A stretch of DNA of 28,456 nt from an uncultured archaeon. GTDB taxonomy: Archaea; Asgardarchaeota; Lokiarchaeia; Sigyniarchaeales; Promethearchaeaceae. The position numbers were made by a program, and so were the translations under genes. The stretch covers positions 6,571 to 35,026 of the forward strand of contig CAYRPF010000029.1 of the NCBI GenBank assembly GCA_964426185.1, in the 5' to 3' direction. Positions 22,475 through 28,434 of the stretch are shown here, piece by piece. Below the pieces are notes generated by a model. The model was given only the letters and a program-made list of their open reading frames with translations. It searched no databases and was not told the origin of the DNA. How positions within the stretch are numbered: position 1 is the first letter of the stretch; each line of letters starts with the position of its first letter.

Positions 22475-23614
22475 CTAAATTAAAGGAGGATCTTTAGGGG
22501 TATAGGTCAATTTATCATATCCATCCTCCTTAATAACCAAATCATCCTCCAAACGCACACCCCATTGACCTTCCCAATATAAACCGGGTTCATTGGTGAT
22601 GATCATGTTTTCTCTCTGAAGAATACTATCCGGCATTTTCGCCCGCATACCTCCTCCCACATCATGTACTTGAAAGCCTAATGAATGGCCTAAACTGTGA
22701 AAGTAAAGCTTTTCATGGTCATATCCTTTTTCTGCTAAAGCTTCTCGAACCCGAATCGCAGGTAAATTCATAGGATTTCCTGCTTTGATCACCTTATAAC
22801 TTTTCGCTTTGGCATAATTCAGCGCTTGATAGGAATTCACAAAATCTTCGGATGGTTCTCCACCAATCCAATAAGTCCATGTAATATCGGAACACATTCG
22901 ATGAGGTTTCATCCCAGAATCAATTAATAGTACACCTTTCTCGATTTTTTTATCAGAACCATTATGGTGGGGATCAGCCGCGTTTGCGTTATTGGCTATG
23001 ATGGCTGGAAAACCAATTCCACCATTTTCCAAATATTTTGCTTCTAATTTTCTCTTTACTTCATTCTCGGTCATGCCGATTTTTACCCAATTGGGTAGAT
23101 CCTCCAATATTTCCAGGTTTATCTTGGCAGTTTCACGTAAATCTTCGATATCTTCATTAGTTTTTATAGTGCGTAATTCGTAAATAATAGGTGCAGCGGA
23201 GAGAAAATTAGTATTTGGTGCGAGCGATCTTAACGCACGATATTCTCCTAGGGGTAAATATTCAGCAAATGCAGTACTTTCCATAGATAGTACATTTTCT
23301 CCAAAATCAAGCGCAATTTTGGGTTTGTTAAGGATTTTTTTTAATTTTTCCTGAATATCATCAAATCCAGTATAGGCCGAAACTTGGGCATTTACACCCA
23401 TTTTATTTAATTGCTTTTCTACCATGGGTTTTTCCATAGTACATGTTAAAACCTGATGGTTTCCCGAACGGTCAATATAAATGTAATGTCGAATGTGTAC
23501 TTCTAAATTTAGCATAAATTCAGAATGAATATCTGAGCCTTCGGAACAAGCGATGAGCCATCCATCAATTTCATTTCTATCGAGAAGATGTTGGGCACGT
23601 TCAAATAGATTCAT
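22475..23614 (-). CDS. M24 family Xaa-Pro amino/dipeptidase
   Basis: 'LRTIKT', 'ADPHH', metal ligands in 'IDSG', 'SDIT', 'HSLGHSLGFQVHD', 'TNEPGLY', 'GVRLEDD'. Confidence 0.93.
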   Translation of the reverse strand: MNLFERAQHLLDRNEIDGWLIACSEGSDIHSEFMLNLEVHIRHYIYIDRSGNHQVLTCTMEKPMVEKQLNKMGVNAQVSAYTGFDDIQEKLKKILNKPKIALDFGENVLSMESTAFAEYLPLGEYRALRSLAPNTNFLSAAPIIYELRTIKTNEDIEDLRETAKINLEILEDLPNWVKIGMTENEVKRKLEAKYLENGGIGFPAIIANNANAADPHHNGSDKKIEKGVLLIDSGMKPHRMCSDITWTYWIGGEPSEDFVNSYQALNYAKAKSYKVIKAGNPMNLPAIRVREALAEKGYDHEKLYFHSLGHSLGFQVHDVGGGMRAKMPDSILQRENMIITNEPGLYWEGQWGVRLEDDLVIKEDGYDKLTYTPKDPPLI

Positions 23615-23697: not shown

Positions 23698-25386
23698 ATG
23701 GTAAAAAAGCGCGTAATTCTTTTCGGTATGATTATAATCACCTCCTTTATTTTGCAAATCATTGCCCTTTCTTGCTTCATTCCAGTAAAAAGCGATCACG
23801 ATATCGAATTTGATTATGTTTATAAGTGGAAATTGAATGGCAAAACGGGGGATTATTACGATTATGATGAAAAAATGACCACAACTGGGCATTATGTGGT
23901 GGATTTTGATGGAGATGTGGCTAATGTCATTGCGGAATTCAGTTGGAAATGGAAAGCAACCTATCAAGGTAGTTACTACGATTCAGCAGAGGGTGCGGAT
24001 GAGTACATTTTTCAATTTTCGTTGATTGATGGAAAATATATAGGTTATCAAACTGATCAAGATGAGTATCATCCTGATATGGGAGTATGGTTCTATATTC
24101 CGAACATTGAAACAACAAATTCACATAAAATTCTTACAGGAACTTATCAAAAATCACAAGTGAAATCTCTTGAAACAATTTGGATACGATCATTAAGCCC
24201 GCAGTTAGGTTATAAATTCACCGATACTGGGAATTTTCACCGAAATGATGAGTACGGCAACATGGACGCCACATATCGCAGTGATTATTACTTCACCAAA
24301 GAAGGTTACTTACTTGGTGAAATTTATTCTGAATCAGATAAAGGGTACAGCAATGGATATTACAGCACATATGATGTTAATTCAAAAGTTTTTGTGTATT
24401 CAAGTAATTATGGCCGATCTTTAAACTATTTTTATTTCTTGTTATGCTATTGGCTCCCTATTATTGTAGTTTATGGATATGCTATTGCATTGAAAAATTA
24501 TAATATTCGGCGAAGAAAACACATCAATTACCGAGAAAAAACCTTGATATTTCAACCGAATATTGATTTTAAAATAGAAAATGCCGACTTCAGCTCAATT
24601 TACAAAAGTTTAATCCCAGCGTTTGTGTGGCGCACATACCGTCAAGAAGGTAAGGTTTATTCAATAACTGATGATAATAAATTAAAGGGATTAGCTCTAA
24701 TTGATGCTAAGGGAAAAGTAGGAACACTTTTTGGGAAATATCAAAGCTTAATGATTAAGCAGACTAAAATTGATTATTTCTTTACCGAAAATACACAGCA
24801 ACATCGATATCACTGCATTGATAACTATGATATCTTAAGAATTCCCAATTTGTCTGCCCAAAATTTCGATTATAATGCATTTCTGGTAAATCCTTTAGCT
24901 GAAAAATATGTTCCGGCAGTTGTCGATCTTATTTCAAACGAAGATTTTGGCAAAGTATTACCAGAAGTCTGGAAATGGGTTCATCAAGCCATAAGCAATG
25001 AGATTGCATATGTTGCAATAGCAAATATAAAAGAACCATGGGTAAAAGAAATATTAGATGCATTAGAGACAAAGAAATTCCCCCCTCCTGAAGCTGTGGA
25101 AGAAGATGTAATAATGGGAGTAGGATTCGCGGTTATCTATCAAGATATAGGATGGTTGTACGGACTTTATGTTCATCCTGCATTTAGGAATTTAGGAATT
25201 GGTAGAAATCTTGCTCTGGCTCGGTTATCTGCTTTAAAAGAACTGGGAGCAAAAGAAGTGTTGACAGAAATTGGTCAATGGAACGGACCTGCAAAAAAAA
25301 TCTATGAAAATTTCAACACAAAAACAGTAGGGAAAATATATCTGTATGGTAAGAAGAAACCCACAGTTCGCATCCGCCGTAGATAG
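23698..25386 (+). CDS. Membrane-spanning GNAT acetyltransferase: signal/TM, Tyr/Asp-rich ectodomain, TM, cytoplasmic GNAT domain(s)
   Basis: Hydrophobic N-terminus; TM 'YFYFLLCYWLPIIVVYGYAIAL' followed by 'RRRK'; GNAT motif A 'LYGLYVHPAFRNLGIGRNL' and motif B 'NGPAKKIYENF'. Confidence 0.85.
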   Translation: MVKKRVILFGMIIITSFILQIIALSCFIPVKSDHDIEFDYVYKWKLNGKTGDYYDYDEKMTTTGHYVVDFDGDVANVIAEFSWKWKATYQGSYYDSAEGADEYIFQFSLIDGKYIGYQTDQDEYHPDMGVWFYIPNIETTNSHKILTGTYQKSQVKSLETIWIRSLSPQLGYKFTDTGNFHRNDEYGNMDATYRSDYYFTKEGYLLGEIYSESDKGYSNGYYSTYDVNSKVFVYSSNYGRSLNYFYFLLCYWLPIIVVYGYAIALKNYNIRRRKHINYREKTLIFQPNIDFKIENADFSSIYKSLIPAFVWRTYRQEGKVYSITDDNKLKGLALIDAKGKVGTLFGKYQSLMIKQTKIDYFFTENTQQHRYHCIDNYDILRIPNLSAQNFDYNAFLVNPLAEKYVPAVVDLISNEDFGKVLPEVWKWVHQAISNEIAYVAIANIKEPWVKEILDALETKKFPPPEAVEEDVIMGVGFAVIYQDIGWLYGLYVHPAFRNLGIGRNLALARLSALKELGAKEVLTEIGQWNGPAKKIYENFNTKTVGKIYLYGKKKPTVRIRRR

Positions 25387-25428: not shown

Positions 25429-26658
25429 ATGGAACAAGAAAAAAGAATTCGATCGGATAATTATACTCAACATCTAACACAATTAAAGAACTTTCAATTA
25501 ACCCTCTATTCGGTACCACTTTCTTCGTGCCAAACAAATCCCCATTTCACTCATTTAAAATCATGGATCATGTTGCATATTGGAACGGGAAGTTACCAGT
25601 TACTTGCAAAAATCCATCCGGAATTATTTCACCAAGAAATGTCGGTTATTTCTGCCATTCGAGATGAAAATCGAAATGCAATCATTCCAGATCGTTTCAT
25701 CATTATAGAAAATCGTAGATATTTCCTTTCAATTAAAGGTTGTGGTGCCTATGAGGATATGTTTGAAGGAGGGCAATTAACACAACAAAGTCTAAGAAAT
25801 ACATGTCGAGATCCAAATTTACTTCCCAAAATTAAGGAATTAACAAATACAACTGGATTTTTCATGGCGGAAAATTGGATGGGTGAGAGCCCTTACGGTG
25901 CACAAGGTGAATTGAATGCCAATGATGAATTGGAATTTTCCACATTGGCCAATCCTCTGCATATTAATGGCGCATATCTCTGTCCTGTTATCGCAATTAT
26001 CCGTATACCAGAACCAATTGAAACATTGGCGAGGAAGTTTTTTTGGTATCGAACTTATAAAAAACCATTTTACCAAGTAATCCGCTTGGTTCCTTCCAAA
26101 ATACGGTTATATTTCGAATCTACGGAGGTACTTAAACATCCCGAGCAGTTAATGGACGTATTAGGGATAGATACGGGAGAAGAACTGCGTGAATTTGAAT
26201 TGAATTTTATCAGAAGCGGCATCGCTCTTCTATCCCTATTTACCCGTTCTGCAATCATTCAAGAAAATACAATTAAAGGATTAATCTATCAAGATGTTTG
26301 GTTAGATAAAGATGCAATTTTGGCTCTTGATGGAACCATTCATTTCGCAGACATCGAAGGTTTAATGTATTCAACCGTACAATTAGCAGATTATCCAAAT
26401 TTTCAAGAAAAAGAATGGCAGAAATTAGCTTTCGAGTTTCTTTTTGCATTAAATAACCTGGATAAGACACGCCGTCAACTTGAAAATCTTTCTTTAGATT
26501 ACACTTCTCAAAGACTGGAATTGGCAAATTTAGTTCAAGAGTCTTTGGAAACTGATCCCATTGCCGATACAACTGTCCATGATAGAAATCTATACATAAA
26601 AATTCAGTGGAAATCGCTTCCACCTATAGAAATTCCTTTTTTAGAACAATTTCATTAA
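25429..26658 (+). CDS. Uncharacterised protein with SelO/YdiU-like kinase-fold motifs
   Basis: 'FLSIKGCG', 'GESPYG', 'CPVIAII', 'IRLVPSKIRLYF', 'WLDKDAIL..DG..HFADIEG'; AAGGAG upstream. The CDS is certain; the fold call is tentative. Confidence 0.6.
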   Translation: MEQEKRIRSDNYTQHLTQLKNFQLTLYSVPLSSCQTNPHFTHLKSWIMLHIGTGSYQLLAKIHPELFHQEMSVISAIRDENRNAIIPDRFIIIENRRYFLSIKGCGAYEDMFEGGQLTQQSLRNTCRDPNLLPKIKELTNTTGFFMAENWMGESPYGAQGELNANDELEFSTLANPLHINGAYLCPVIAIIRIPEPIETLARKFFWYRTYKKPFYQVIRLVPSKIRLYFESTEVLKHPEQLMDVLGIDTGEELREFELNFIRSGIALLSLFTRSAIIQENTIKGLIYQDVWLDKDAILALDGTIHFADIEGLMYSTVQLADYPNFQEKEWQKLAFEFLFALNNLDKTRRQLENLSLDYTSQRLELANLVQESLETDPIADTTVHDRNLYIKIQWKSLPPIEIPFLEQFH

Positions 26659-26697: not shown

Positions 26698-28434
26698 ATG
26701 ATTAATAATTTAACCTCTCAAGAGGGACTTGAAATCTTAGAATCGCTAAAAAATCATGAATTTATTCCTGTAGACTTGGAAAATATAAAAAATTTAGAAG
26801 AATTAGGAATAATTCATGGCCGAGAGCCATTGGATATTAACGGAATAATCCAAATAGATTTAGATGAGAAAAAAAGGGAATATCAAGAGCAGTTGCAAAG
26901 ATACGATACTTTAAAGGAAAAATTTATTCAAATATCAAAGGAAAGAGATAATTCAAGATATTTGAGTGAATTCTTTTACCCATTTGGCTTTGGTAAAAAA
27001 CGGAAAATGGTAAAAAGGCTTTCATCCATCATGAATCAAATTCGTTTGGAAGAAGAGCAATTAGCCAGACTTAAAAAGGAAATATTGAAGATGATCACCC
27101 TTCGAGATGGTGAACTTGGCTCCATCCAGTTTAAAAACAAAAGTTACAGAATTACACCTAAGGGAATAAGCTTAATTCGAGAAATTAAAATCCGTCCGCG
27201 TTTTCTCAATCGCAATATGGAAGATCTATTAAAATTCTTGAACTTAGTAGATCAAAATTATCAAAATCAAATTGATACGGTGCAATCTCATATCACAGGT
27301 CGGAAATTTTCTCCAATTCTCGTTCCATATATAGCAGATTTAGATCAACTCCATCTGGTTCCGTACTTCGATAGAATAGGAAGGAAACATAATCCTTACG
27401 TAGATCGAATTGTTCCCGAAGAACGAATTATCAAAAAAATGGTAGATGAATTATACGATTTTCCAATTTCACCAAATTTTCTGAAGCAAACTAACAAACT
27501 TTATCGAATAATGAAAAATATCATGAACTCTTTTGGTAGTGTTCCAAATGAAATTAGGATTACAATGCGATTAATATCATATATTCTACTTTATTGGGCA
27601 TACAACCAAACACGAGATGATTCCAAAAACTTATTGAAGCATCCACTAATATTGAGATTCATTAACAATTTAAATGAATTAGAAAGAAATTATTTTGGTC
27701 ATTCCTCCTCAGAAGAAAAGTCACATTATTCCGATTTAAAAATTGGTAGATATAAAAAACTGCATCCACTTACTTCATTATTTATATTGGCATTAAGCGA
27801 TGATCCTTCTAAATTCAGCTATTTTCTACCTAAAGTTAATCATGGATTAAAGGGAGCCACTTTTTTTGCATCAACCTTATCAATAATGCCTTGGACAAAA
27901 GAAGAATCATGGTTACTGCTTAAAAGAGCAGAAAAACAAGTTTTAATGGCCCAAAGTGTCCAATTTATTCCTGAATTGCTAGAATATAGTATTATTTTAA
28001 ATTTGAATCCTAAGTTGCTATCAAGTATTGGAGAATTAAGTGAAGTTGATCTAAAATACTGGAAATATGTAATTTTACCGATTATAGCTTCAATTGATAT
28101 CTTTTCATTGAATGAAGAAATATCAAATTATGTAGAAAAATACCCATTGTCCTACATCACCAATCCTCGCCCGTATTACCATTATTATGGTTATTATCAT
28201 AGAAGAACTTGGTATTTCTGGATTGGAAGACTACATCGGCATTATTATCGACGATATCCCACAACAACGACATATACTACTTATCATACAGGAACTCGAG
28301 GAGGACGGATGCACTCTAATCGATTAATCAGTGGAACCAGAGGTGTTGGTTCGGTGGGTAGATTTGGAGGAGGAAGTCGAGGTTCGATGAGGGGTAGCCG
28401 GTATTCTTCTCTTCACCATCATACTATTGGTTAA
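26698..28434 (+). CDS. Uncharacterised protein: wHTH-like N-terminus split by a coiled coil, helical core, Y/H/R- and G/R/S-rich C-terminal tail
   Basis: 'KNLEELGII'...coiled coil...'YRITPKGISL'; tail 'PRPYYHYYGYYHRR...RGGRMH...GRFGGGSRGSMRGSRYSSLHHHTIG'; AAGGTGA RBS at 26681-26687. Confidence 0.75.
   Translation: MINNLTSQEGLEILESLKNHEFIPVDLENIKNLEELGIIHGREPLDINGIIQIDLDEKKREYQEQLQRYDTLKEKFIQISKERDNSRYLSEFFYPFGFGKKRKMVKRLSSIMNQIRLEEEQLARLKKEILKMITLRDGELGSIQFKNKSYRITPKGISLIREIKIRPRFLNRNMEDLLKFLNLVDQNYQNQIDTVQSHITGRKFSPILVPYIADLDQLHLVPYFDRIGRKHNPYVDRIVPEERIIKKMVDELYDFPISPNFLKQTNKLYRIMKNIMNSFGSVPNEIRITMRLISYILLYWAYNQTRDDSKNLLKHPLILRFINNLNELERNYFGHSSSEEKSHYSDLKIGRYKKLHPLTSLFILALSDDPSKFSYFLPKVNHGLKGATFFASTLSIMPWTKEESWLLLKRAEKQVLMAQSVQFIPELLEYSIILNLNPKLLSSIGELSEVDLKYWKYVILPIIASIDIFSLNEEISNYVEKYPLSYITNPRPYYHYYGYYHRRTWYFWIGRLHRHYYRRYPTTTTYTTYHTGTRGGRMHSNRLISGTRGVGSVGRFGGGSRGSMRGSRYSSLHHHTIG

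Follow-up and report, generated by a model that had tools for sequence, protein, structure and literature searches.

A SelO-resembling kinase-fold protein family encoded in a conserved three-gene cassette of Asgard and other archaea

The window analysed in this work is a stretch of 28,456 nucleotides from an uncultured Lokiarchaeia archaeon (contig CAYRPF010000029.1 of assembly GCA_964426185.1, positions 6,571 to 35,026 of the forward strand). An open reading frame (ORF) running from 25429 to 26658 on its plus strand encodes a protein which, on the basis of a confident structural model, has a kinase fold, and is probably an atypical, AMP-transferring enzyme. The gene is the middle one of three same-strand genes, encoding in turn a GNAT membrane protein, the kinase-fold enzyme and a protein of about 500 amino acids, and this conserved partnership is itself undescribed. 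We regard it as somewhat better than an even bet that the kinase-fold protein is an active, ATP-using enzyme which transfers AMP and works, within the cassette, on the tail of the third protein. Conservation of the cassette across phyla, co-occurrence of its genes, and an invariant glycine at the end of the third protein are newly established here. Kinase-fold enzymes that do not phosphorylate have repeatedly opened new biochemistry, as in AMPylation by SelO, glutamylation by SidJ and RNAylation by NiRAN. The gene had been described in a first-pass annotation of the same DNA as a divergent SelO/YdiU-like pseudokinase with possible AMPylase activity, an interpretation which is partly supported by the analyses reported below.

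Predicted fold and conserved residues

The ORF starts with ATG and has a product of 409 residues (P0001). Both the ORF and the five motifs on which the first-pass annotation relied were borne out, in the order given, by a check of the sequence: LSIKGCG corresponds to residues 100-106, SPYG to 154-157, RLVPSKIRLY to 219-228, DKDAI to 293-297, and ADIEG to 307-311. The AlphaFold2 model, built on an alignment of 53 sequences, has a mean predicted local distance difference test score (pLDDT) of 95.4 and a predicted template modelling score (pTM) of 0.93. It features a beta-rich N-lobe and a helical C-lobe, and the bilobal architecture agrees with the earlier proposal of a remote kinase-fold family. 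Foldseek searches against the PDB are led by six YdiU structures and by 6iii (E 1.2e-4 to 6.5e-4, probability 0.99-1.0), followed by NRPS-independent siderophore (NIS) synthetases, where NRPS stands for nonribosomal peptide synthetase, and by pseudokinases and kinases. Among solved structures, the closest fold is thus that of SelO. In the ESM Atlas, three unnamed archaeal clusters, which are the kinase-fold family itself, come first, and the PF02696 SelO cluster follows, with template modelling (TM) scores of 0.54/0.63 over 289 residues; the TM scores of APH and Kdo clusters are only 0.36-0.41. Three independent structure searches agree on the fold, and in the structure comparison the two AMP-transferring families, SelO/YdiU and NIS synthetases, stand about 4 Z units above every kinase. 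In a search based on language-model features the first named neighbour is an 'MchC protein' cluster (score 0.94, 187 shared features), which is to be taken as a lead, not as a proof.

Conservation of residues was counted over 138 full-length homologues. G104, G157, P186, Q216, R219, P222, R226, D295, G302 and D308 are found in all of them, R82, K103 and K294 in 137, S223, R273 and E310 in 135, the remaining three carrying D at position 310. Among the 815,830 residues of the ORFs of at least 200 amino acids of the same genome, R[LIVM]xPSx[LIVM]R has a single match, which lies in the kinase-fold protein. Judged from sequence, the motifs are beyond chance, given their invariance and the uniqueness of the RxxPSxxR pattern.

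Most of these residues can be read against SelO. In the Pseudomonas syringae enzyme ATP is bound flipped, with its gamma-phosphate held by K113 (stabilised by E136), R176 and R183; Mg2+ is coordinated by N253 and D262, and there is no HRD Asp (PMC8097203). In Pseudomonas and Escherichia coli SelO sequences these numbers map to the motifs L-K-G-x-G, R-x-A-P-S-x-x-R, N-T-D-N and D-[YF]-G-P. The invariant residues of the kinase-fold family fall at the SelO functional positions K113, R176/R183, N253 and D262. Moving along the protein, the turn linking strands 72-79 and 83-93, the first two of the N-lobe, is the glycine-rich-loop position and reads D79-E-N81-R82-N (25663-25677, plus strand, as for all the segments of the cassette described herein), N81 being conserved in 129 of the 138 sequences. 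R82 is proposed to be the counterpart of the Arg in the GDGR motif of SelO. Strand 96-103 ends in the L-S-I-K103-G-C-G segment (25726-25746), where a beta3 Lys precedes a G-x-G as in SelO LKGxG, and G106 is found in 135 homologues. An insertion of about 40 residues (108-147), which SelO does not have, separates this segment from the block E148-N-W-M-G-E153-S-P-Y-G-A-Q-G (25870-25908), placed directly before helix 161-173 at the alpha-C position. Besides the invariant G157, the block includes E148 (131/138), E153 (121/138) and P155 (137/138), and one of the two glutamates may pair with K103. According to the first-pass annotation, SPYG would correspond to the TPYS motif of SelO.

The segment R219-L-V-P222-S223-K-I-R226-L-Y (26083-26112) covers the end of beta5 (strand 214-221) and the hinge. 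At the level of the sequence motif, its pattern and spacing equal those of SelO RxAPSxxR, in which the arginines are R176 and R183. The catalytic-loop equivalent D289-V290-W-L-D293-K294-D295 (26293-26313) is followed by strands 296-298 and 304-306, and D293 is found in 132 homologues. The HRD-Asp position, five residues before D295, is taken by V290 (V in 122 homologues, A in 10, I in 4, S in 2), which would match the Val of the SelO HGV triplet. The protein thus lacks the catalytic Asp of canonical protein kinases, and no match to PF00069 was found at E<=1. In the model D295 lies just before strand beta7 (296-298), and would occupy the metal-ligand position of N171 in PKA and N253 in SelO. 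In the next segment, D301-G-T-I-H-F-A-D308-I-E310-G (26329-26361), D308 lies two residues past strand beta8 (304-306), plausibly at the DFG-Asp position (SelO D262), and E310 is a second acidic residue, comparable to that in the D-x-E motif of choline-kinase/APH-type enzymes. The spacing of 13 between D295 and D308 equals that between N171 and D184 in PKA. Secondary structure and spacing thus set K103, D295 and D308 where a member of the protein-kinase-like superfamily is expected to have them, relative to strands 96-103, 296-298 and 304-306. Taken together, the high-confidence model and the invariance of these residues suggest that the family belongs to the 'flipped ATP' class.

Much of this set is retained in a subfamily sharing only about 20% identity with the kinase-fold protein, in which R82, K103, Q216, R219, P222, S223, R226, R273, K294, D295 and D308 are kept, and W291 and D293 are not.

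The cassette, its Gly-ending protein and its distribution

The genes of the cassette are closely spaced, being separated in the window by 42 and 39 nt, and by 4-nt overlaps in several other loci. Loci were read, among others, in a closed 4.36-Mb Lokiarchaeota genome, in ten more genomes of the order, in a Methanoperedens contig, a Sandaracinaceae contig and two long metagenomic contigs. Gene order and strand are the same in every main-family locus read. Of the 17 loci read by script, 16 have a GNAT-containing gene upstream, as does, with a called gene, the Sandaracinaceae locus (L098); the third gene follows the kinase-fold gene in every locus read. Of the 201 genomes of the phylum, a profile of the third protein picked 11, precisely those in which the kinase-fold gene was found.

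The third protein (26698-28434) has 578 residues and is soluble. It matched no Pfam, NCBIfam or PADLOC family. The AlphaFold2 model (pLDDT 76, below 50 in the tail) suggests an N-terminus which resembles a winged helix and is interrupted by a coiled-coil hairpin, then an all-alpha domain spanning residues 174-481, and a disordered tail rich in R, G, S and Y (489-578). Foldseek found nothing similar to this fold at E<=0.001, and VIA only the coiled-coil hairpin, the all-alpha domain having not been searched alone. The last nine residues, S-S-L-H-H-H-T-I-G (28405-28431), are the proposed site of recognition or modification. Gly is the last residue in all the 26 homologues read, even in those encoded on Methanoperedens-type and bacterial contigs, whose overall identity is only 11-15%. 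The endings conform to ...S-[SM]-L-H-[HY]-H-x-[IV]-G, ...H-[ST]-x-[FY]-[AV]-[YF]-G or ...G-W-G, and in the clade of the window SSLHHHTIG is preceded by some 90 disordered residues, a linker rich in R, G, S and Y. By comparison, only 2.5% of the ORFs of at least 200 amino acids in the same genome end in Gly.

The first protein (23698-25386) has 562 residues, and its acetyltransferase domain is recognized by Pfam (Acetyltransf_1, E 8e-10). A signal/transmembrane segment (12-30) is followed by an ectodomain of about 210 residues, rich in Tyr, Asp and Gly, by a transmembrane helix (247-265), a cytoplasmic region, and a C-terminal GNAT domain (466-540) which keeps an intact R-x-x-G-x-G acyl-CoA motif. 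The overall layout is receptor-like. Shorter homologues of 386-438 amino acids retain one transmembrane helix. In all homologues the protein ends with a short basic tail (VRIRRR, VKVRRY, IVRR; 25366-25383 in the window), the second conserved C-terminus of the cassette. In bacterial-type contigs (L096/L097, 5321-6220) the start of the GNAT gene is overlapped by an additional gene, whose 299-aa product belongs to no known family and may be a fourth component in that lineage. A divergent gene for an M24 peptidase lies upstream of the cassette in the window (22475-23614, minus strand), and the closest Lokiarchaeota genome (L093, 3899-6126) has YjbQ and PadR genes along with it. Since this arrangement is missing from more distant loci, it reflects synteny within a lineage, and does not belong to the cassette.

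Though genuine, the family is rare. It corresponds to about 120 clusters at 90% identity in a collection of 5.8 billion proteins, and to only 78 representatives at 50% identity among 1.84 billion proteins. Most members are from Asgard archaea. Those at 44-60% identity reside in Asgard metagenome-assembled genomes labelled as Loki-, Thor-, Heimdall-, Odin-, Hermodarchaeota or Promethearchaeota, those at 30-39% identity in Thermoplasmatota, Methanoperedens and one myxobacterium, a Sandaracinaceae bacterium. The distribution is patchy: the 11 positive genomes of the phylum belong all to one order, and the gene was not found in the sampled genomes of the same genus or the same family. The organism's own genome, which is 92% complete, carries a single copy. 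As to the subfamily at about 20% identity, genes adjoining its members (P0190 contig, L111/L112 and L114) vary. One member comes after two M16 peptidase genes and before a gene for a 456-aa protein without known identity, another precedes a gene for a 234-aa unknown protein, and a third stands alone, adjoining a ribosomal-protein operon.

The protein is not represented in the family catalogues searched. It has no match in NCBIfam or PADLOC, and neither the protein, nor 53 homologues, nor 10 distant members matched any Pfam family at E<=1, and thus the distant members provide no bridge to known families. A sequence search of the PDB with the family profile gave 0 matches at E<=10, and no account of the family was found in the literature searched.

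Candidate chemistry and competing explanations

In the mechanism proposed, ATP would most likely be bound 'flipped', the beta- and gamma-phosphates lying in a basic pocket formed by R82, K103, R219, R226, and probably R273 and K294, and Mg2+ being held by D295, D308 and E310. AMP would be moved to an acceptor and pyrophosphate released, and no phosphate would be transferred. The six conserved basic residues fit a triphosphate buried as in SelO and SidJ; two of them sit at the hinge, where kinases bind adenine. The enzyme would act as the middle component between the membrane-anchored GNAT acyltransferase and the third protein, and the flexible, Gly-ending tail of the latter would be the most likely acceptor. 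Two options can be envisaged. AMP could be attached to a side chain of the tail (conserved Ser, His, Tyr and Thr are available), in a SelO-like AMPylation. Alternatively, the terminal Gly carboxylate could be turned into an acyl-adenylate, to be resolved with the help of the GNAT protein. For the latter option comparisons are offered by NIS synthetases, by SidJ and by MchC/MceJ, a distant SelO subfamily which, together with the acyltransferase MchD/MceI, acts on the C-terminal carboxylate of a microcin (PMC3281104, PMC7680869). In its fullest form, this option would make the cassette an undescribed system for modifying or ligating protein C-termini, in which the Gly carboxylate is adenylated and the GNAT protein completes the transfer to a nucleophile, possibly under the control of the ectodomain. 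We consider this extended version a tentative idea, with the chances clearly against it.

Several observations weigh against the proposal of an AMP-transferring enzyme acting on the third protein. No sequence method ties the family to SelO, to MchC or to NIS synthetases. The gathering score of the PF02696 hidden Markov model (22.8 bits) was reached neither by the kinase-fold protein, nor by the 53 homologues, nor by the 10 distant members. Profile comparisons made with hhalign, using the alignments of 53 or 138 family sequences against 81 SelO sequences, gave probabilities below 1% and E-values of 0.18-0.19, and those against 117 MchC sequences an E-value of 0.04 and a probability of about 1%, with the match in an irrelevant region. 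As a control, MchC matched SelO in the same kind of comparison with an E-value of 1.3e-4 over 160 columns. The first-pass description as divergent SelO/YdiU-like thus stands as far as the closest solved fold is concerned, and finds no support in sequence and profile similarity, including the comparison with PF02696 that had been suggested as a check. The comparisons with SelO included the single E. coli sequence as well as the 81-sequence alignment, and were run in local, global and low-threshold modes. A lone local match, which is not significant, sets residues 70-107 on E. coli SelO 75-111, R82 being on R87 and K103 on K107; a long alignment obtained by forcing was rejected, because the RxxPSxxR motif was misplaced. 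The residue equivalences to SelO proposed above come from motif pattern, spacing and predicted secondary structure. In the subfamily at about 20% identity the core residues are present, yet the cassette is absent. Differences with the microcin system also count. MchD/MceI is an acyltransferase of the HlyC type, whereas that of the cassette is a membrane-anchored, classic GNAT (Acetyltransf_1); the microcin substrate has 75 residues, is Ser/Gly-rich and ends in Ser, whereas the third protein is large, structured and ends in Gly. Last, D293, K294 and the D-x-E motif could also be used by a conventional phosphotransferase.

A conventional phosphotransferase, either a protein kinase or a small-molecule kinase of the APH, choline-kinase or Kdo type, holding ATP in the usual orientation and using D293 or D289 as base, is indeed the most serious of the competing explanations, unlikely as we judge it. 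Against it stand the Val found at the HRD-Asp position in most homologues, and the loss of D293 in the distant subfamily, in which D295 and D308 are kept. The structural ranking, with AMP-transferring families well above any kinase, and the low TM scores of the APH/Kdo clusters in the Atlas, are also at odds with a phosphotransferase, and the basic residues, six of which are invariant or nearly so and two placed at the adenine-binding hinge, better fit a buried triphosphate.

The resemblance to NIS synthetases might be taken further by supposing that the enzyme is a small-molecule ligase, which adenylates the carboxylate of a metabolite and condenses it with an amine or an alcohol. The GNAT protein would act earlier in the pathway, as IucB and DesC do in siderophore synthesis, and the third protein would not be a substrate. 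This is decidedly improbable. Pfam matches to IucA_IucC (PF04183) and FhuF were found neither for the protein nor for the 53 homologues, no conserved gene for a hydroxylase, decarboxylase, exporter or receptor surrounds the cassette in the loci read, and the GNAT protein is membrane-anchored and carries an ectodomain. Moreover, the coupling to a protein with winged helix-turn-helix and coiled-coil regions and an invariant C-terminal Gly would be left unexplained.

The patchy occurrence within the phylum, the spread over archaeal phyla and into a myxobacterium, and the compactness of a three-gene unit with a membrane, sensor-like component are all features that a mobile module for stress or anti-virus defence could have, in which the kinase-fold enzyme would be an effector modifying host or viral targets after a signal at the membrane. 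The probability of this scenario seems low to us: none of the three cassette proteins was matched in PADLOC, and the neighbourhoods of the loci read are made of ordinary housekeeping genes, not of defence islands. Defence is in any case a reading at the level of the biological role, and is compatible with the chemistry proposed. The least probable explanation is a catalytically dead pseudokinase, which would link the GNAT receptor to the third protein only as a scaffold or as a sensor of nucleotides. In its favour are the lack of the canonical catalytic Asp and the tightness of the operon, whose genes often overlap by 4 nt, which suggests that the products form a stable complex. Against it, R82, K103, R219, R226, K294, D295, D308 and E310 are invariant or nearly so in the 138 homologues, with conservation reaching down to about 20% identity, as is typical of active sites, and SelO itself was once labelled a pseudokinase for the missing Asp and proved active (PMC8097203). 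AMP transfer within the cassette accounts better than any of these rivals for the strict association of the enzyme with a protein that always ends in Gly.

Given two obligate partners and a candidate substrate, the Gly-ending tail, three recombinant proteins would suffice to test the chemistry directly. Should the reading centred on the terminal Gly be true, the cassette would provide a new route to activate the C-terminal glycine of a protein without an E1/ThiF-type or ATP-grasp enzyme, and such activation would be found in Asgard, the archaeal lineage closest to eukaryotes, and in other archaea. Should it fail, the kinase-fold family would still be a new and well-defined member of the atypical kinases, with clear targets for mutagenesis.

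Relationships to SelO, NIS synthetases, SidJ and MchC

The failure of all the sequence tests for SelO, MchC and NIS synthetases implies that the proteins make up a new kinase-like family, and are not members of SelO. Within the kinase-like superfamily they deserve an entry of their own, as a new family that resembles SelO and NIS synthetases. SelO/YdiU enzymes (PF02696; 6eac, 6k20, 6lna, 9l29) have the loop M-N-T-D-N where the family has W-L-D-K-D, and the gap to the DFG-type Asp measures 9 residues in SelO, 13 in the family. D-I-E-G is found in place of D-Y-G-P, the insertion between K-G-x-G and the S-P-Y-G block is exclusive to the family, and both the C-terminal helical domain and the Cys/Sec tail of SelO are missing. 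Whether the protein might be a diverged in-paralogue of a resident SelO was also considered. The hypothesis was rejected, since no canonical SelO was found in the organism's own genome by a six-frame PF02696 search, which was positive in 4 control genomes, nor in the 201 searched genomes of the phylum.

NIS synthetases of the IucA/IucC type (AcsD, SbnC, AsbB, DesD, DfoC) are longer, the kinase-fold protein being shorter by about 170 residues. Their N-terminal 'thumb' has no counterpart in the protein, as NIS chains remain unaligned before residue 130-190 or so, and siderophore pathway genes are not found around the cassette. The association with an acetyltransferase has a parallel in DfoC, in which an acetyltransferase is fused to the NIS synthetase, as stated in the title of PDB entry 5o7o.

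SidJ, which needs calmodulin, has a second, 'migrated' nucleotide pocket and is not among the top structural matches listed, is the mechanistic precedent for the adenylation of a carboxylate by a kinase-fold enzyme. In this Legionella glutamylase a kinase-like site adenylates a protein carboxylate before ligation, and the beta- and gamma-phosphates are buried in a basic pocket (bioRxiv 10.1101/2021.04.13.439722).

In genetic organization there is a likeness to MchC/MceJ and MchD/MceI, where a SelO-type kinase fold stands beside an acyltransferase and a protein modified at its C-terminus (PMC3281104, PMC7680869). The arrangement mchB-mchC-mchD is seen in E. coli CFT073. MceIJ is reported to depend on ATP. 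The cassette differs from the MchC/MceJ setting in having no siderophore or export genes nearby, and in the type of acyltransferase. In the cassette a GNAT gene adjoins that for the kinase-fold enzyme, and the invariant C-terminal Gly of the downstream protein may stand where the microcin carboxylate does.

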